From a virus (Duplodnaviria > Caudoviricetes), in IMG/VR virus record IMGVR_UViG_3300037722_001090: a stretch of DNA of 64,000 nt; one strand, given 5' to 3'. The translations under genes and the position numbers were made by a program. The stretch's first letter is position 1; the number at the start of each line of letters is the position of its first letter. A model generated the notes under the pieces. That model was given only the letters and a program-made list of their open reading frames with translations, had not been told where the DNA came from and made no database searches. This document shows, piece after piece, positions 24,414-32,702 of the stretch.

Positions 24414-25382
24414 TTAATTTGCTAGCCAATCATTATAGCATTCGTTAGTTTCATCATTAAAACCTCCTCCTGCATATTCTTCCCCCAACACCATAAAATC
24501 GTGAGTATCAGGCGTGTCTTTTAGGCTCATTAAGAACCCAAGACTAGCAATCCCCCAGTCTGACTGAGAAACTGAATAGCCTTTTTTTATATATTTTTCA
24601 ATTCTAATAAATTGAGATCTTCGTACTGGTAAATTGATAAACTTAAATTGCTTCTTTCGAAGAGCACGGATAGCACCCTTAAGCATATAAACAAATTCGC
24701 CATCATAAGCTAAGCAGCAAGCACTAGCATCAAACTCACTTAAAACATGAGTAGCTTCAGCAAAACATTTACTTATAATCTGTACAAGAGTAAATGGAGC
24801 AGCAATTAATCTACACTCAGTTACATGACCCTTCGGGTTCACTTCCCACGCATTATTAGACTCGAATTCTTTAATGACAACATCTCTATCTTCTTCATTA
24901 GTAAAGAATAAATCAAAGTCATTTGTAGGATCAACCTCATTGTTAAACCAGCTCATAACTTTCCCACCAGCAACAATGAACTTAAATCCTCTTTCATGTA
25001 GATCATCAATAAGTGCAAACGTAGATTTAGATATTTCAGGATTAATACCAAACCTACGCTCAACGGTACTTCTTTTACTGCTCATAAAAATCATTTTATG
25101 TCTTAGGCATTTTGAAATAAAAGGCGTATATACATTAGCTAAAAACTCTGGTACATATTCTCTTTTTAGCTCCCCAATAGGACATGTAATCTTAGCATCT
25201 GAAAATACTAAATTTTTAAGTCCCTTAATTCTATTCCAGTCAAGAGAATACTCAATTTTCGGGGAAGTAGCTGACTGCATTTTTAATTTAGAATCTTTTA
25301 CATTTCTTATCGTTGCAAATGTGGCTACAGCAGTATTATCAGCATCATTCGCCATATCTAGTTCTGTAAAACTCCAAGACAT
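24414..25382 (-). CDS. nucleotidyltransferase (Pol beta superfamily, CCA/polyA polymerase-like head)
   Basis: VAGG...NDFDLFF, later FD...CCLAYDG; start moved to MSWSF. Confidence 0.7.
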   Translation of the reverse strand: MSWSFTELDMANDADNTAVATFATIRNVKDSKLKMQSATSPKIEYSLDWNRIKGLKNLVFSDAKITCPIGELKREYVPEFLANVYTPFISKCLRHKMIFMSSKRSTVERRFGINPEISKSTFALIDDLHERGFKFIVAGGKVMSWFNNEVDPTNDFDLFFTNEEDRDVVIKEFESNNAWEVNPKGHVTECRLIAAPFTLVQIISKCFAEATHVLSEFDASACCLAYDGEFVYMLKGAIRALRKKQFKFINLPVRRSQFIRIEKYIKKGYSVSQSDWGIASLGFLMSLKDTPDTHDFMVLGEEYAGGGFNDETNECYNDWLAN

Positions 25383-25469
25383 TATCGTTCCTTTGTGTAA
25401 AAAAAAGAGTGATGGCTTTCCTTCCGTACTAACCACCACTCAGTAACAAAAATTGTATAAATACAAGAC

Positions 25470-25870
25470 AAGCCCTAGGCTTTATGAATAGCATCCGCCG
25501 CTACTCTCTTGTAATTATACATATCGACTCTAAACTGGGCCCGCCAGGCATGTCCGCCTTAGGAGACCAGTCTTCTCGAGCTGCGTGCACATAGCGCTGC
25601 GTTAGAAACGCAGTGCGTTTTGCGCGAGCTCGCGATATCAAATTGCGATGCAATTTCGATTGTCGACCAGGTGTCATAGGTACCTTTAATAGATTTAAAG
25701 GCCTTCGTATTTCCGGGGCGTTTTCAAAACGCCACAGGATTCTCTATATCGATATACTATTGTATACCTTCATAGGGACTCGTGTTCCTATGATCCTGAC
25801 GATTTTAATACGAAGTTCTGAGAAACTTCGATATCCGCAGGATAGCTTTTATTAAAATCGTGTACAAATT
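25470..25870. repeat. polylinker-like array of restriction-site palindromes and short-loop hairpins
   Basis: 17 six-bp palindromes counted by hand in ~400 non-coding bp directly downstream of the RT. Confidence 0.8.
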
Positions 25871-25883
25871 ATCAGCAGTCGTA

Positions 25884-26657
25884 TCAACTGCCGCGCTTTG
25901 CATCACAAGTTTCCTTGTACTGCATAAGTTTATGATATTGATCCTTGTTAACACTTTTCAAATAAGAAATGTGACCCATTTCAACATCAGTAACTTTTCC
26001 ATTATAAATAGCAGCACGTAAGTTCTTACGTATTTTTCTATTTAAAGAGACTTTTTCATTCACAGTAATTCCAAGAACTTTCTGTGATTTATTCTTATAC
26101 ATATATTCTATTTTATTATCCCGAACATCAAATCCAAGTTCACGAAGTCTAGATCTTACAATGTTTATTAACTCACCAACATCAGGTTTTCCATACCCCG
26201 AAAGCGTAATATCATCCGCATATCTAGAGAAGTTTATCTGCATAGGCTCCAGCTTAACAAATAGTTCTTCATCAAAGTCTCGTAGTACAATATTAGATAT
26301 AACAGGACTACAAGGACTTCCTTGAACTAACTTACTATCAAGAGTTGCTATTTCCTTTTCATATTGATCAAGAAATGTAAGCATATGTGCTTTAATTGAA
26401 GGAAAAAACTCAGCAATATCAATGTTAAGAACCCAATCTTGACCTACATGAACACACGCAGCATCTGTAGTGCTTTTACCTTTAATGAATCCATGACAAA
26501 AATCACTCATCCATTCTTCATTAACTAAACGATTTCTCAATATTCTTTGATGATCTTTTAATTCTTCACACGGAGCATGTATAATTCTTCTTTTACCATT
26601 TTTCTTTTTGCGATAGAAAACACTATACAGTGCATTCTTATTGCTCATATCTAGCAT
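25884..26657 (-). CDS. retron-type reverse transcriptase (short, 257 aa)
   Basis: KKNGKRRIIHAP, HGFIKGKS, DAACVH (NAxxH-like), DIAEFFPSI, QGSPCSP, YADD, VLGITV (VTG-like). Confidence 0.9.
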   Translation of the reverse strand: MLDMSNKNALYSVFYRKKKNGKRRIIHAPCEELKDHQRILRNRLVNEEWMSDFCHGFIKGKSTTDAACVHVGQDWVLNIDIAEFFPSIKAHMLTFLDQYEKEIATLDSKLVQGSPCSPVISNIVLRDFDEELFVKLEPMQINFSRYADDITLSGYGKPDVGELINIVRSRLRELGFDVRDNKIEYMYKNKSQKVLGITVNEKVSLNRKIRKNLRAAIYNGKVTDVEMGHISYLKSVNKDQYHKLMQYKETCDAKRGS

Positions 26658-26681
26658 CGATTATCTTCCTATTTATAACTT

Positions 26682-26697
26682 GCGGCCCGAAGGCCGC
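26682..26697 (-). terminator. stem-loop with UUCG loop just upstream of the RT start
   Basis: GCGGCC-TTCG-GGCCGC on minus strand; no U tract. Confidence 0.5.
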
Positions 26698-26699
26698 TA

Positions 26700-27510
26700 G
26701 TGATATGTAAATAACATTGGAACAATGTTATGAGTGAAAGAAGTGAACCCAAAGGGTCAGACTTTTTGAGCGACTTCTTTCTGAAAATGGCTATCGAAAC
26801 AACAGCCCGAGATGCAGTTTTTTTTTAAAAAATGTATAAAGAGAGAGTAACCTCTCAAGATACTGACAAGTCAGAGACTCAAAAATTTCGACCTGTGGCG
26901 AGAAATACAATAAGCAAGCGTTTGTTTTTCTTGCCTGTGGTCGAAATAATTTGATGCTGAACTTGGGGTCAGAGACCTTGTTACAACTTATTTTATTTTT
27001 GATTCCTTGTGTTAACAAGGGGCAGTCCGATTTTTAGCTCGTTGAGCTTTTAATCGGCCTGTCATTTTGATCCTGAAAGGGCAAAATTTTCAAAGATAAA
27101 ACAAGTTCACAAGGGCTGAACCTACAGTCAGAGCAAACCTCGTATAACCCCTAGGACGCGTCAGTGTCCGCCGGGTTTGTCGAGCGTGTCGGTAGTTTGC
27201 TGAACTGTACGAGCGTAGCGGTTAAGCTACATAAAATAGGATAAGCGTATCGCCTATCAAAAGCTGTATAAAACCCTGCTCAAGCAAACAGGATATATAC
27301 TCAGGATTTAGGATTCTAAGAATCCTAAATACTATAACTGACTTTACTGAACAGTTTTATCGTCAGAGTAAAGTCAAATCTTCTTGTCTTTGCCGTACCA
27401 GCAAAGATTACTAACAGACAGGGAACATCCAATGTCAATATTTTTGGCTTTATAAGTATCAATTCCGGAAGGATTGGATAGATCATAAGATGTATTTGAC
27501 ATAACCACCA
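26700..27510. ncRNA. large nested multi-hairpin non-coding region upstream of RT (candidate RT template RNA)
   Basis: more than 12 hairpins and long-range pairs; no convincing ORF. Confidence 0.65.
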
Positions 27511-27534
27511 CTGTCATATTAGATTTTCTAAAAT

Positions 27535-27873
27535 TTAAGAATGTTTCCAGAGCTTAAATTTCTTAAAAAGCTTTCTGTCTTCTCCGTACACCGGTTCACT
27601 ACAAATAGCAGTATATCCCATTTCATAATCTGGTTCAAAGAACATATAGTTTGTTATATTATTACAATCCAAGTATTGCTTGGCTCGTAATAGTCCTTCT
27701 TCACTTTTCACAGTAAGTACTATTAGAAATGAAACCTCATCTGGTTTCGCTTTTAGGCGCTGTCCCATTTCAAACGCTGCATGAGCAGTCTGTACTAATT
27801 GCGCATGTGATGGTATATCTGTTCTTACAATGCAGTAAGTATATGGTTTCTATGTTGACATTTTATCACTCAT
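27535..27873 (-). CDS. Pth2-like peptidyl-tRNA hydrolase with in-frame TAG at codon 8
   Basis: GGAG RBS, MSDKMST*KPYTYCIVRTDIPSHAQLVQTAHAAFEMG...FFEPD...TAICSEP; TAG at 27850-27852. Confidence 0.75.
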
Positions 27874-28174
27874 AGATTTCTCTCCTCAACACTTTCAGAG
27901 CTACTTTAGATTCACTCATAATTTTATCAGTGATACTAGTTAATACTTCATCACTTGCAATATCCTTAAAGAAATGCTTTGGTAATGAAATATATGCAAT
28001 AGTTTCATATCTAGTTGTTGGAGCAAGACATTCTTTCCAGCTTTTCCCGCATAGTTCCTTGTAAATAAGGTGATGACCGAAAGACATATTATCTCTCTCG
28101 CTACTATTAATAGCATCACTCCATGCTTTCCGTACTTGAAGATATTCTTCTTTTGTTTCGAATTTGGTTTCCAT
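27866..28174 (-). CDS. hypothetical protein
   Basis: 102 aa, overlaps the start of the Pth2-like gene. Confidence 0.6.
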   Translation of the reverse strand: METKFETKEEYLQVRKAWSDAINSSERDNMSFGHHLIYKELCGKSWKECLAPTTRYETIAYISLPKHFFKDIASDEVLTSITDKIMSESKVALKVLRREIYE

Positions 28175-28251
28175 TGTTTCTGTCCTTTTATATTGAGAAT
28201 TGTTAGAGTCATATTTATTTTTTTTCTATCTATTATTTTCGACTATGTCAA

Positions 28252-28335
28252 TCAACAATGAACAGGAGGAGACCTGCTTCGAATCTACAATTGAGGGATT
28301 CCTCGCATAGGGTTTTCTTTAATCATCTTCTTCAT
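28252..28335 (-). CDS. leader peptide with in-frame TAG followed by RSPP
   Basis: AAGGAG RBS, MKKMIKENPMRGIPQL*IRSRSPPVHC(TGA); TAG at 28285-28287. Confidence 0.5.
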
Positions 28336-28421
28336 TTTATCTCCTTTCAGAGTGTAAATTAGTAAATGCAAGACCATAATTAGGTGTTCCGGACCACATG
28401 ATCTTTTTTACTAAACTATAA

Positions 28422-28499
28422 TGGTGCCCTGTACCGGATTTGAACCGGTGAATCTTCGGGTTTAGAATCCGAGGCCTTACCTGACTTGGCGAACAAGGC
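28422..28499 (-). tRNA. amber suppressor tRNA (anticodon CUA), Gln-like body
   Basis: acceptor GCCTTGT/ACAGGGC, loop TT-CTA-AA, TTCAAAT T loop, encoded CCA. Confidence 0.85.
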
Positions 28500-28502
28500 A
28501 TA

Positions 28503-28730
28503 TTGAGAGGGATTATTTAATAGCAGCAACCCATAGTACGTCGACTATGAGTTAGTTTTTGCTAGAAATCAAGAAATAATATAGGTCTTGACCAGCGCTT
28601 ACGACTTATTTGGTTACCTATTTCACAAACAAGAAGCGAGGACCACGTACACATACGGATAAGTTGGAAATCTTATCTAAAGGTTGCCTGCATCGTCATT
28701 AGAAGTAACTGCTATACTCGCCACTCTCAA
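28503..28730 (-). ncRNA. long Y-RNA-like element
   Basis: TTGAGAG/CTCTCAA and ATAGCAG/CTGCTAT stems with the TGGCG..TTACTTC motif shared with elements at 62-64 kb. Confidence 0.55.
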
Positions 28731-28734
28731 AACT

Positions 28735-29232
28735 TTAAACTAATGTAACATATCTATCTGAGCCAAAGCTTTTAAGTTCTTCAGCATCAGGTCTTTGAAT
28801 CTGTGTATACATACGACGAATAACATCTTCAGGCACTTTACGTTCACGACCTTTTTGTCGCTCAAGGCATACCTCAGGACTTACATCAAAATAACTAATA
28901 TGAAAGTGACACTCTACGCCAACTTCTTTTGCAAACTTCCAATACTGGCTACGCATTTTCTTAGTCAATGAAGTATTGTCTATAAAAATCATACTATGCT
29001 TAATTTCATTAGACACAAGATATTCCTTATATCTAGCATGATGTATTTTAAACACTTCATTATTACGATCTTGACAAGTAGCATCACCAGTAAGTTCTTC
29101 ACGAATCATATCTGCATTTAAGCGAATACACTGATCTTCACCAAAAGAGTCAATTAATTTTTTTACATGAGTACTTTTACCAGAAGAAGGTAATCCAATA
29201 GTAATAAATACGTATTTTTTTCTATTTGACAT
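28735..29232 (-). CDS. polynucleotide-kinase-like P-loop protein (AAA_33)
   Basis: GLPSSGKST, IDNT, R.R.VPEDVIRRM. Confidence 0.82.
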   Translation of the reverse strand: MSNRKKYVFITIGLPSSGKSTHVKKLIDSFGEDQCIRLNADMIREELTGDATCQDRNNEVFKIHHARYKEYLVSNEIKHSMIFIDNTSLTKKMRSQYWKFAKEVGVECHFHISYFDVSPEVCLERQKGRERKVPEDVIRRMYTQIQRPDAEELKSFGSDRYVTLV

Positions 29233-29950
29233 TACTTATAATCCCTTCAACAATATGACTCATCCATACATGATGAATTTTAAAGTTATGCTCTGACATA
29301 GTTCTGTTATTATAAAGAGTTGTACCATTTCTCCAGCAATCAGGATATTTATCCCAATCAATTCCTTTTTCAGAAAATAGCATTTCTTTAAGACTATTAC
29401 AGTTTACACCCTGTAATTCTTTATGGGAAAATACGGACTGTGCAGCCATTTGTACACTATTGCGCCACCAATCTTGCTGTCTCCATAGAAAGTAGTTATT
29501 AACTTCTTCCTTAGGCAAATTAAATGCACGACAATCAAAGTGAGCCGGAACAACATCATTTAAAGAAGGGCATTCTCCAAATCGCAAGGCAGCAAAGCGC
29601 ATAGTAAATGCTACAGAAGCAATAGCAGCAGCAACACTACACATCTTTTGAATGTTATAATTATACCAAGCTTCTGTTTCAAAGTTTTCATAGTCAGTAA
29701 TTAAAATAGAAATCTCATCAGATTGAGTATATGCAACTTTAGCTCCTTGAATATTATTCAAAAGAGCACGTGCTGCATAAGTCATTGCGTCATGTAAATG
29801 ATCATCAAATGGCTTATTACAACCACGAGTAAAAGTATGAAAAGCTTTTCCATCTAATCTTAAAATTACAGGAGTTCTTCTGGTAAGATAAGTACGAGAT
29901 CTTGTCTCATAATTATCCTTCATTCTATCACCTAAAGAATCATTCTTCAT
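29222..29950 (-). CDS. tRNA(His) guanylyltransferase Thg1-like
   Basis: LRLDGKAFHTFT, YTQSDEIS, FDCRAF, WRQQD..RNS. Confidence 0.92.
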   Translation of the reverse strand: MKNDSLGDRMKDNYETRSRTYLTRRTPVILRLDGKAFHTFTRGCNKPFDDHLHDAMTYAARALLNNIQGAKVAYTQSDEISILITDYENFETEAWYNYNIQKMCSVAAAIASVAFTMRFAALRFGECPSLNDVVPAHFDCRAFNLPKEEVNNYFLWRQQDWWRNSVQMAAQSVFSHKELQGVNCNSLKEMLFSEKGIDWDKYPDCWRNGTTLYNNRTMSEHNFKIHHVWMSHIVEGIISNVK

Positions 29951-30170
29951 TACTTATCCTAAGTTATCGCCACAGTTTTTACAATGCATATCAGGCTCTA
30001 GTCCATTCGTATTATAAAATACAGTACCAGCCGGATGACCTTTAATTCGGCATAAAATAACAGTAAACCAAGATACATCAGAGGATTTCATATCAAAAAG
30101 ATAATTCCACCATGACTTACTAAACCATTGTCTAACTACATAGTACACATTAACAATTCCATCTATCATA

Positions 30171-31187
30171 TCACTTATTCTCCGTACCGCTTTTACGTAG
30201 CGAATATCGCTCACTAATATACTTAAGTACAAGTCGTTTATTAAGCTCCATAGGAGTACGCTCTACTACAGGCTGAACAACAACACCCTCCATCATATGC
30301 TTAGCACCAGGCCACACAGAATCAACAAGATTAAATTGCTCAACAATAGACTTACTATAAGGCCCACGATATAGTACAGTAGCCATTTTGATTTTATATT
30401 TATTGCAAAGATCTTGGAATTCATTATAGTTCAGATAACGTCCATCTACCTTAGCAGCAAAAATAGCATATTGAATCTTGCCTCTTTCGCACCCATACTT
30501 TAAATCTTGAACTCCAACAATCTCACCAATCAAATGCACTTTATCATGAATGGCAGTAAGTTCAGGAAACTCTTTTATAACACGAACATATACATTACCA
30601 GAATTCTCTTCATTATCTTTCATCCAGTTATTATGTGAACCAGAAAAGATAACATTATCCTTATTCATAACACAAAAGTTAGTGCCATGAAGCTTCTCAG
30701 TAATAACAATTTCTTCACCATCGACTAGCAAATTATTATACTTTTTAAAATGCTCAGGTGAATCAAAAGCTTCCTGTAAACCAATTGGGCGTAAGACTTG
30801 TCCTGCCATTTCAACCGGGATTACAGGTTCATATTTAGTTACACCAAAGATACCAGTAACTTCAGCTCCACGCTTAGGAGTTTCTGAAATATCTTTAGGC
30901 CAATATTCGCTAACAGGGATGAGTAGACCTTCAGAAAAAATACCCCTAAGTCTAGCAGCTCTAATTCTGCCACTATAGAAACTTTTAATTCCAAATTCTT
31001 CTACCCATTTATCTGGAAGAACAGAATCTACTGGAAAGTAGAAAGCTAGATCACCAGGCGTATAATTACCTTTTTGAGAAATGCATACATAGTCCATACC
31101 GACAATCTTAATAATATCAAGACGATCAGCATTTGGATGATCTAGTACATCGGCAATCTCAACTACATCAACTCTTAGTTCCGCCAT
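30171..31187 (-). CDS. RNA ligase, DRB0094 family
   Basis: HPNADRL N-terminal module, TEKLHGTN, GEIVG, EGVV, LKYIS. Confidence 0.88.
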   Translation of the reverse strand: MAELRVDVVEIADVLDHPNADRLDIIKIVGMDYVCISQKGNYTPGDLAFYFPVDSVLPDKWVEEFGIKSFYSGRIRAARLRGIFSEGLLIPVSEYWPKDISETPKRGAEVTGIFGVTKYEPVIPVEMAGQVLRPIGLQEAFDSPEHFKKYNNLLVDGEEIVITEKLHGTNFCVMNKDNVIFSGSHNNWMKDNEENSGNVYVRVIKEFPELTAIHDKVHLIGEIVGVQDLKYGCERGKIQYAIFAAKVDGRYLNYNEFQDLCNKYKIKMATVLYRGPYSKSIVEQFNLVDSVWPGAKHMMEGVVVQPVVERTPMELNKRLVLKYISERYSLRKSGTENK

Positions 31188-31985: not shown

Positions 31986-32702
31986 CTACATCCATTGTTT
32001 ATCTTTTCGGCTACGTTTCCATCCGCGACCTTTACTGTTATGATAATGTATACAGTCCCAATCAGTATAGGCCATTTCTACAAACTTAGCACGACTGCGA
32101 TTATATTTAATATTCATACCATAAAAATCTTCGTCGCATTCAAGGTCATTTATAAAACCAATAGAAGACCTGGCTTCCATTCCAAATCCACCATGATCAC
32201 CATCATATTTATGCCAGTGACCATTACGTCGACCAGTACGAGTACCTGGCCGATAGTTGCGATAGCTGTAATTTTGCCATGTAGACTTATCATCAAGACG
32301 AATCTTTTGAGCATCTTTCCATAAATCTTTAGCATTAATAATACGACCTAATGAATCAGTTACCCTAAGTGTATGAGGCGTAAACTTAGGTTCAATCCAT
32401 ACGTGATAATACTCCATTTCATGGTCCCACGTATTATCTTCTTCATTGAATACAATTTTACCAGTAGGTCTTGTGCGACGATCCCAATGGCCTTTAAAGT
32501 AAATACCATCATTATCATTATGGCTATAATTTCTAGCAAATGACTTAAAGTCAGCATACAAGGATCTATCACTATAATACCACTCACGTCTTACGGGTTT
32601 TTCTGTAAACCAATACTGCTTAATATGCTTTAGTATTTCAACATAAGTACTTGTTTTCTTGTTTTTACAAATACCATATTTAACTTGTTCAATTTGTTTC
32701 AT
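31986..32702 (-). CDS. hypothetical protein
   Basis: 238 aa, GGAGG RBS, followed by a terminator hairpin near 31961-31981. Confidence 0.6.
   Translation of the reverse strand: MKQIEQVKYGICKNKKTSTYVEILKHIKQYWFTEKPVRREWYYSDRSLYADFKSFARNYSHNDNDGIYFKGHWDRRTRPTGKIVFNEEDNTWDHEMEYYHVWIEPKFTPHTLRVTDSLGRIINAKDLWKDAQKIRLDDKSTWQNYSYRNYRPGTRTGRRNGHWHKYDGDHGGFGMEARSSIGFINDLECDEDFYGMNIKYNRSRAKFVEMAYTDWDCIHYHNSKGRGWKRSRKDKQWM

Follow-up and report, generated by a model that had tools for sequence, protein, structure and literature searches.

A conserved in-frame amber codon in a phage Pth2-fold gene family, a candidate target of phage-encoded suppressor tRNAs

The locus

The gene considered here encodes a protein with a fold like that of peptidyl-tRNA hydrolase 2 (Pth2) and is interrupted close to its start by an in-frame amber codon (TAG, the gate in what follows). 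It lies on the minus strand of a 64,000-nt stretch of DNA, the window, from a virus assigned to Duplodnaviria; Caudoviricetes (IMG/VR record IMGVR_UViG_3300037722_001090). The window has a GC content of ~34%, 11 tRNAs and nearly all of its genes on the minus strand, and looks like part of a large phage; the longest contig that carries the C-terminal fragment of the gene, called as an open reading frame (ORF) of 77 aa, reaches 205 kb. A megablast search of positions 26000-30000 against GenBank phages gave no match.

In gene orientation the sequence reads ATG AGT GAT AAA ATG TCA ACA TAG AAA CCA TAT ACT TAC TGC ..., and 104 codons follow the TAG in the 27873..27535 reading before the gene's own stop, TAA, at 27537..27535 (Table 1). 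The original prediction, made from the letters of the window, had described a GGAG ribosome-binding site, an ATG, six further codons and the TAG, all of which are present as quoted when the minus strand is read. It had also held that ORF calling recovers only the C-terminal 77 aa; under translation table 11 the ORF list indeed yields just 27535..27768, which begins at an internal Met. Upstream on the same strand lie a conserved neighbour, ORF-X, a short leader ORF with an amber codon of its own, and a tRNA with anticodon CUA. Eight homologous neighbours align with ORF-X, for which Pfam, PHROGs and Atlas gave no match.

Table 1. Features of the window at and upstream of the gated gene.
Feature	Position	Strand	Description	Source
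Pth2-fold gene	27535..27873	-	112 codons with TAG as sense; leader MSDKMST (7 codons), TAG is codon 8, whole domain after it	Translation
In-frame amber codon TAG	27850..27852	-	Next base A (TAG-A)	Sequence
Shine-Dalgarno GAGGAG	27882..27887	-	8 nt 5′ of the gated gene's ATG (27873..27871)	Sequence
ORF-X	27866..28174	-	102 aa; its TGA stop and the gated gene's start overlap (ATGAGTGA)	ORF list
Leader ORF	28252..28335	-	AAAGGAG Shine-Dalgarno, ATG 28335, 16 codons, TAG 28287..28285, IRSRSPPVHC, TGA	Sequence
tRNA, anticodon CUA	28422..28499	-	Class I, CCA encoded, G1-C72, A73, A31-C39 mismatch	ARAGORN
AAA_33 kinase	28735-29232	-	RNA-repair-type set, near the suppressor tRNA	
Thg1-like 3′-5′ nucleotidyltransferase	29222-29950	-	Ends in TAG, overlapping the next start	
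RNA ligase	30171-31187	-	RNA-repair-type set	

Conservation of the amber codon and of the sequence after it

The sequence across the TAG is identical in four other Joint Genome Institute (JGI) assemblies, and Logan contigs from two runs of different studies (sediment 2020, soil 2025) agree with positions 27850-27852 without difference. Seventy-two distinct homologues keep the TAG in this position: 31 are distinct genes from assemblies, metagenomes and GenBank phages, and 41 come from a separate IMG/VR scan in which 41 of 66 distinct loci were gated. These homologues are 30-75% identical and carry the TAG at codon 2-9, immediately 5′ of strand β1; every close homologue with fetchable DNA has it at the equivalent site (Table 2, where relatives are cited by locus number). 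The gate also occurs in more distant clades (MK-TAG-IKLVTVTRED, MS-TAG-VPYMY and others) and in cultured jumbo phages. A maximum-likelihood tree places it throughout the sampled family, with two losses, one in RaK2 and one in a clade of fusion proteins. One scan of genome contigs found no relative, and another returned two loci, an ungated homologue in an Agitococcus metagenome-assembled genome and a spurious match. Positional conservation in 72 homologues excludes a chance origin of the TAG.

Table 2. N-termini of gated genes and of homologous amber leaders, with the amber codon written as TAG.
Locus or phage	Gated gene	Leader ORF
Window	MSDKMST-TAG-KPYTY	MKKMIKENPMRGIPQL-TAG-IRSRSPPVHC-TGA
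L005	MSGDQHL-TAG-NPYTY	
L006	ML-TAG-TPYVY	MEVFR-TAG-VVRPP-stop
L007	MH-TAG-TPYTY	
L008	ME-TAG-TPYTY	
L009	ME-TAG-TPYTY	METFR-TAG-VARPP-TAG
L010	MNK-TAG-TPYVY	MEKFR-TAG-VVRPP-stop
L012	MNNN-TAG-NPYTY	
L014	ME-TAG-KVYTY	MKKL-TAG-VNPKHPP-stop
L028	ME-TAG-TPYTY	MVKSF-TAG-VARPP-stop
L036		...-TAG-VRARAPP-stop
L037		...-TAG-VHARGPP-stop
L045		...-TAG-KLHYGPRGPP...
Yersinia fHe-Yen9-04 (cultured jumbo phage)	MSH-TAG	
Pectobacterium CBB (cultured jumbo phage)	MAQ-TAG	
Acinetobacter ME3 (cultured jumbo phage)	MT-TAG	
Ralstonia RsoM2USA (cultured jumbo phage)	ML-TAG	
Salmonella Arash (cultured jumbo phage)	ML-TAG	
Uncultured 595-kb phage	MTH-TAG	
XacN1 (Xanthomonas), HD-domain fusion	MK-TAG	
CM1 (Stenotrophomonas phage), HD-domain fusion	MK-TAG	

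The stretch before the gate is mostly M-x, two codons in 46 of the 72 gated genes, and its ATG follows a Shine-Dalgarno sequence in almost every homologue. At +4, directly after the TAG, the base is A in 53 genes, G in 17 and C in 2, hence a purine in 70 of 72, despite a codon that varies (AAA, AAT, ACT, ATT, ACC, GTT and others). A 3′ purine favours amber suppression. The 31 tabulated gated genes terminate in TAA (16), TGA (14) or TAG (1, backed by TAA). At L010:1019-1024 a TAA comes directly after the terminator TAG, and with such a tandem stop read-through would add no more than one residue. Some database proteins show a Q at the gate, which is the TAG as translated by a gene caller with code 15.

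Judged from nucleotide comparisons, the segment after the TAG evolves as coding sequence under purifying selection. Between 17 pairs of relatives, the 27 codons after the TAG differ at 70, 41 and 208 sites in codon positions 1, 2 and 3, and their codon changes are synonymous in 163 cases and non-synonymous in 80. For individual pairs the corresponding counts after the TAG are 17 vs 3 (window and L005) and 12 vs 0 (L032 and L036). This 27-codon segment has no canonical start in most genes (one is present in 7 of the 41 IMG/VR gates and in a few others), and the family-invariant residues R17, Q28 and H31 and the nearly invariant D19 fall inside it. An in-frame stop that is positionally conserved in diverged homologues and purifying selection downstream of it, the two marks of programmed readthrough, are both found here. 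The original prediction had allowed that a sequencing error, or homologues with a sense codon at this site and decay beyond it, would overturn it; the outcome was the opposite, with the TAG unchanged in independent assemblies, retained among homologues and followed by sequence under constraint.

The suppressor tRNA and its linkage to the gate

The amber suppressor tRNA that had been predicted about 550 bp upstream on the same strand is located by ARAGORN 549 nt from the gated ATG, and it matches the Rfam tRNA family RF00005 with 53.5 bits. The program's label 'Pyl' derives from the anticodon only. This tRNA(CUA) scores as an ordinary tRNA and has a D loop of normal size and a variable loop of 5-6 nt. 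Its D arm may be Gln-like, but its acceptor end is not. The class-I tRNAs with a CUA anticodon differ widely from phage to phage and are just 51-77% identical to co-resident tRNAs, so that the inserted residue may differ between phages. Such a difference fits the position of the gate in a variable, low-confidence N-terminal tail.

A tRNA(CUA) is present in nine of nine complete gate-bearing genomes, namely G001 (a complete 216-kb relative, IMGVR_UViG_3300031813_000003), ME3, fHe-Yen9-04, CBB, Arash, RsoM2USA, CM1, LR756511 and XacN1. The XacN1 tRNA is taken from the published study (PMC5852040) and the other eight genomes were scanned in this analysis. Mostly the tRNA lies at most 3 kb from the gate and on the same strand; the distance is 420 nt in ME3 (where it is one of just 4 tRNAs), 1 kb in Arash, 3-4 kb in fHe-Yen9-04 and CBB, and 100 kb in CM1. 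In RaK2, whose homologue has an ordinary start and no gate, there was no CUA among the tRNAs typed by ARAGORN, and one Rfam tRNA match, at 195541, was untyped. Among the IMG/VR gate loci, 32 of 41 have a tRNA(CUA) within 10 kb (median 780 nt), and 43 of the 44 nearby CUA tRNAs are on the strand of the gene. Where an IMG/VR locus has a single tRNA, it is CUA in 19 of 23 cases; over these loci together, 58 of 324 tRNAs are CUA.

The fusion clade without a gate (L041, L043-L046, L048, L054 and ~12 IMG/VR loci) has the Pth2-like domain joined to an N-terminal domain of ~130 aa (MKDFR...KAFTP...KLxNG); a CUA tRNA and a TAG...PP leader are found 0.4-1.8 kb upstream of its gene. Homology between ORF-X and this N-terminal domain was considered and is not established (BLASTP E 0.035-0.17, hhalign probability 10.7%). 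Other stop-reading tRNAs also occur in relatives: UUA (ochre) in G001 (L014:6015-6089) and CM1 (L080:9611-9685), and UCA (opal) at L041:2145-2221. In L041 and L047 a phage tmRNA adjoins the Pth2-like gene.

The genetic code of the phage

TAG is a normal stop elsewhere in the window, as the original prediction had argued in setting aside genome-wide recoding: 6 of the 74 minus-strand ORFs of at least 100 aa end in it, including the one at 31986. Greedy ORF coverage of the window is 0.846 with table 11 and 0.859 with TAG as sense, and that of G001 is 0.843 and 0.865, respectively; a rise of the same small size is obtained in both when TGA or TAA is the codon read as sense. In these two sequences TAG ends 7-11% of genes. 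Genome-wide recoding of TAG (code 15) is excluded, because coding density is not raised specifically by reading TAG as sense. A scan of the window and G001 for TAGs followed by coding sequence yielded no second convincing interrupted gene, the other candidates being sigma-70-like promoters (TTGACA-17-TAGxxT) or else genes whose starts were ordinary. Repeated promoter-like words in G001 (AAATTGACA(A/G)TTAAATGATC...TAG, at 1840-1880 and 165500-165540) mimic 'ATG-x-TAG' gates in a naive scan.

The Pth2 fold

With the TAG read as a residue, the AlphaFold2 model has a predicted local distance difference test score (pLDDT) of 91.3 and a predicted template modelling score (pTM) of 0.84. Its elements are ordered β1 (residues 11-17), α1 (22-39, with Q..HAA), β2, α2, β3, β4 and α3, and the TAG is residue 8. 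The earlier statement that β1 and the Q..HAA helix follow the TAG with no start codon ahead of them agrees with this model, in which the first internal Met is residue 36. Because β1 and α1 sit between the TAG and that Met, the 77-aa ORF is predicted to be unable to form the domain.

The Pth2-like fold proposed in the original prediction is likewise upheld by Foldseek, with template modelling (TM) scores of 0.7-0.8 to archaeal Pth2, Bit1 and PTRHD1. The top PDB matches are archaeal Pth2 (3erj, 1wn2, 1rlk, 2zv3, 1xty) and human Bit1 (1q7s), at probability 1.0 and TM 0.65-0.75, and those in AFDB/Swiss-Prot are PTRHD1 and archaeal Pth2, at TM 0.7-0.82 (0.82 to PTRHD1). A family profile searched against PDB matches the peptidyl-tRNA hydrolase 24bt_A (E 0.003), with RTD...Q..HA aligned and a 2-residue gap at the Gly-Lys of the latter. 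Y13, R17, Q28, H31 and E80 are invariant in the family, and D19, P81 and D82 are conserved at 90% or more. The protein may be an active hydrolase. The family is large, comprising 3053 cluster representatives at E < 1e-3, many with ordinary N-termini. Its PHROGs matches are phrog_1866 and phrog_34073; the latter was evidently built from truncated calls, since its 77-position model covers just the C-terminal part.

In XacN1 ORF364 (L071:2443-3300), CM1 (L075:2443-3300) and L015:9431-10300, an HD-like N-terminal domain (phrog_14850) precedes the Pth2-like domain in one protein. These fusions have the amber gate (MK-TAG or MNT-TAG) at the start of the fusion protein, and the annotated start of ORF364 is an ATG 4 codons past the TAG.

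An amber leader upstream of the operon

Between tRNA(CUA) and ORF-X, the leader ORF of the window carries a TAG that recurs in homologous leaders of L005, L006, L008, L009, L010, L012, L014, L028, L031, L032, L036, L037, L043, L045-L048 and L054 and of several IMG/VR loci (Table 2). Behind the TAG the reading ends in ..RPP, RAPP, RGPP or KxPP and then stops at once, or after a few more codons in the window, L043 and L045. The motif is RSPP in the window, RAPP in L036 and L032, RGPP in L037, L043 and L045, and x-R-P-P or K-x-P-P in many others; its background frequency is 0.10-0.13 per kb per strand. Since the Pro codons vary (CCT/CCA/CCG), it is the peptide that appears to be conserved. R-x-P-P and Pro-Pro-stop are known ribosome stalling contexts; placed after an amber codon, the motif would need suppression to be translated. 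RNA structure between the leader and ORF-X was not significant (minimum free energy z = 0.08); the RSPP codons are covered by only a weak hairpin resembling a terminator.

Interpretation and alternatives

The reading we favour, with a probability of roughly 0.7, is that of a conserved programmed amber gate by which a Pth2-fold protein is tied to suppressor activity, its likeliest role being the recycling of peptidyl-tRNA. A phage with the standard code would supply its own UAG-reading tRNA and, downstream of it, an operon composed of the amber/RxPP leader, ORF-X and the Pth2-fold gene. Ribosomes would start the Pth2-like gene at its Shine-Dalgarno-preceded ATG and reach a UAG followed by a purine after 1-8 sense codons (7 in the window). 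If tRNA(CUA) decodes the UAG, the full 112-aa Pth2-fold protein would be made; if it does not, a tiny peptide would be released and the domain, having no start codon of its own, would go untranslated. As ~70 diverged phages share this layout, the enzyme is probably made only when tRNA(CUA) overrides the stop. Synthesis of the hydrolase-like protein would then be tied to the activity of the suppressor tRNA in a feed-forward AND gate, with a tRNA(CUA) that is presumably expressed, charged and able to read this UAG. The protein would most likely hydrolyse peptidyl- (or acyl-) tRNA that accumulates under stop suppression and Pro-Pro stalling, recycling tRNA in infection; of the possible reasons why such coupling would be useful, peptidyl-tRNA recycling is preferred over a homeostat or a timer. 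The original prediction had further proposed that the gate senses the level of the suppressor tRNA or a shortage of release factor 1 (RF1), and that the short leader is a minigene which gives rise to peptidyl-tRNA; both may be so.

Several observations weigh against this reading. Initiation after the TAG may be possible in a minority of genes, because a start codon follows it (ATG, GTG or ATT directly after the TAG in L029, L031, L034 and L035; 7 of 41 in IMG/VR). The tRNA(CUA) of the window has the A31-C39 mismatch, and at 9 of the 41 IMG/VR gate loci, several of them short contigs, no CUA tRNA was seen within 10 kb. A strong suppressor would be costly, since TAG still terminates 7-11% of the phage's genes. 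Nor does the gate seem to be the sole tie between protein and tRNA, because the fusion clade lost the gate and retains both tRNA(CUA) and the leader. On the protein side, the match to Pfam PTH2 (PF01981) stays below the cut-off of 23, at 14.9 bits and E 0.032 (15.8 bits for the L015 fusion), for which reason the family is filed as Pth2-fold and not as proven Pth2; the loop Gly-Lys of archaeal Pth2 is absent from the alignment, so that the chemistry may differ.

A broader picture, to which we give a low probability, is that of a self-contained circuit. Here tRNA(CUA) would open the operon through its two ambers, one in the leader, whose read-through would expose an RxPP-stop arrest motif, and one at codon 2-9 of the Pth2-fold gene; the hydrolase, perhaps with ORF-X, would resolve arrested or dropped-off peptidyl-tRNA or deacylate the suppressor, so that suppression is sensed and held by feedback. 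Such a circuit, if true, would be a natural analogue of the autoregulation of release factor 2 (RF2), built around a suppressor tRNA, and would account for the 'orphan' suppressor tRNAs of standard-code jumbo phages.

A related explanation, which we regard as unlikely, is a homeostat similar to that of prfB, in which the Pth2-like protein acts on the suppressor itself and read-through of its own UAG both measures and holds the level of suppression. The protein could do so by deacylating aminoacyl-tRNA(CUA), by hydrolysing peptidyl-tRNA(CUA) or by releasing a ribosome arrested on the RxPP leader. The confinement of the sensor codon to the mRNA of this gene family across very diverged phages, with no other gene gated, points this way, as does the fact that even the ungated clade keeps the gene beside tRNA(CUA) and the amber/PP leader; an uncontrolled suppressor would, moreover, carry the cost at terminal TAGs noted above. 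However, the substrate is hypothetical, the loop would be broken in the fusion clade, which has lost the gate, and pure damping implies another target of suppression, of which none was found in the scans of the window and G001 or in the XacN1 study (PMC5852040).

It is improbable that the TAG serves as a timer only, delaying or filtering expression until the co-transcribed tRNA has accumulated, with a protein whose function is unrelated to suppression. This would agree with the model of Borges et al. (bioRxiv 10.1101/2021.08.26.457843), in which the recoding of stop codons acts as a post-transcriptional regulator of late genes, and synthetic feed-forward loops with suppressor tRNAs are described, in one account, as reducing leaky expression (PMC7969014). 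Yet a timer leaves unexplained why, across so many lineages, the gate occurs in this gene family only, and why a CUA tRNA is kept as the nearest, often the only, tRNA in the ungated clade. Still less probable is that the TAG simply ends an upstream ORF of 2-8 codons and that the domain is made by re-initiation or from a non-canonical start just past the TAG. The start-like codons in L029, L031, L034 and L035 have counterparts (again ATG, GTG or ATT directly after the TAG) in ME3, fHe-Yen9-04 and RsoM2USA, and a canonical start between the TAG and β1 exists in the 7 IMG/VR genes already mentioned. In most genes, however, the codon after the TAG is ACT, AAT, AAA, ACC or AAC, and no start lies between the TAG and β1; the gate co-occurs with a CUA tRNA; and the stop is always TAG, never TAA or TGA, a restriction that re-initiation would not need. 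A nonsense mutation, pseudogene or assembly error can be discarded: gene callers do split the gene and GenBank records show fragments or nothing, but independent assemblies and runs agree on the TAG, and its position is kept across 72 homologues with purifying selection downstream.

Novelty, significance and annotation

PTH2 in jumbo phages (PMC7824862) and phage suppressor tRNAs are already known, and what appears to be new is their connection through a conserved in-frame amber codon. A literature search, which left most subscription journals uncovered, found no paper in which an in-frame amber codon, a suppressor tRNA and a Pth2 gene of a phage are brought together. Annotations of standard-code jumbo phages often list amber-suppressor tRNAs, whose purpose has been left open, and this gene family would provide a conserved natural candidate target for them. 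It would also suggest that a single in-frame stop can persist for very long as a switch without genome-wide recoding. The tRNA together with a TAG-purine context at codons 3-5 may serve as natural orthogonal gates.

Gene callers truncate or miss the gated gene, as in the 77-aa ORF of the window, phrog_34073, CBB_406 (KU574722; 77 aa) and Arash gp84c (OQ632216; 50 aa). No feature is annotated at the gated gene in fHe-Yen9-04 (LT960551, 289112-289450) or RsoM2USA (MG752970, 68874-69206). The tRNAs are affected as well, the CUA tRNA of Arash (OQ632216, 49176-49247) being annotated as tRNA-Phe and that of ME3 as 'tRNA-OTHER'. Several of the carriers are cultured, which puts direct tests within reach for read-through and the residue inserted by it, for hydrolase activity and for what the PP leader does.

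Other features of the window

An RNA-repair-type gene set occupies 28735-31187 on the minus strand, just upstream of the suppressor tRNA (Table 1). Directly downstream of the Pth2-like gene, also on the minus strand, a reverse transcriptase of 257 aa (25884-26657; RVT_1, E 1e-26) is flanked by the long ORF-free stretches 25440-25883 and 26658-27530 and lies upstream of a gene annotated as Gad2 (24414-25439). At 54583-55785, within densely coded surroundings, 1.2 kb contain no ORF of at least 80 aa on either strand.

Comparison with known systems

RF2 and initiation factor 3 (IF3) each regulate their own synthesis through a step in the decoding of their mRNA, the in-frame UGA of prfB and the AUU start of infC, respectively. 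The gated gene resembles them in that an early decoding event in the mRNA of a factor would set the amount of that factor. Those systems, however, use frameshifting or start discrimination by host factors, whereas here a dedicated phage tRNA would act by suppression and any feedback is putative. For the leader, the closest likeness is to arrest peptides with RAPP or RGPP (ApdA, ApdP and ApcA) and to TnaC, a leader that stalls at Pro-stop: a short leader upstream of regulated genes, with an R-x-P-P or R-P-P end that usually stands before the stop. The phage motif differs in sitting behind an amber codon, and its stalling is putative.

With archaeal and eukaryotic Pth2 (PF01981; 3erj, 1wn2, 2zv3, 1xty and Bit1, 1q7s) and PTRHD1 the protein shares the α/β fold and appears to share the N-terminal motif R-T-D ... 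Q..HA and a later acidic E-P-D; the phage family is separate and large, and falls under the Pfam threshold. Iyer et al. (2021; PMC7824862) noted PTH2 in jumbo phages and mention neither the amber codon nor the suppressor tRNA. XacN1 is likewise a standard-code jumbo phage with CUA tRNAs, and in its study reading through 18 terminal TAGs gave no target (PMC5852040). That search covered terminal TAGs, whereas the candidate target proposed here has an N-terminal one: the HD-Pth2 fusion ORF364 of XacN1 is preceded by ATG-AAG-TAG.

Phages that use code 15 (TAG = Gln), among them crAss-like and Lak phages, carry suppressor tRNAs (Borges et al., bioRxiv 10.1101/2021.08.26.457843; Peters et al., PMC9523058); the word hydrolase does not occur in Borges et al. 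Recoded phages and the phages described here are alike in that a phage of a standard-code host has its own tRNA(CUA) and a protein that would depend on it through an in-frame TAG, and both share the notion that recoding can serve as a post-transcriptional switch. In contrast to those phages, the genome is unrecoded here, and the in-frame TAG is found in one gene family and its leader, at a fixed site near the start.

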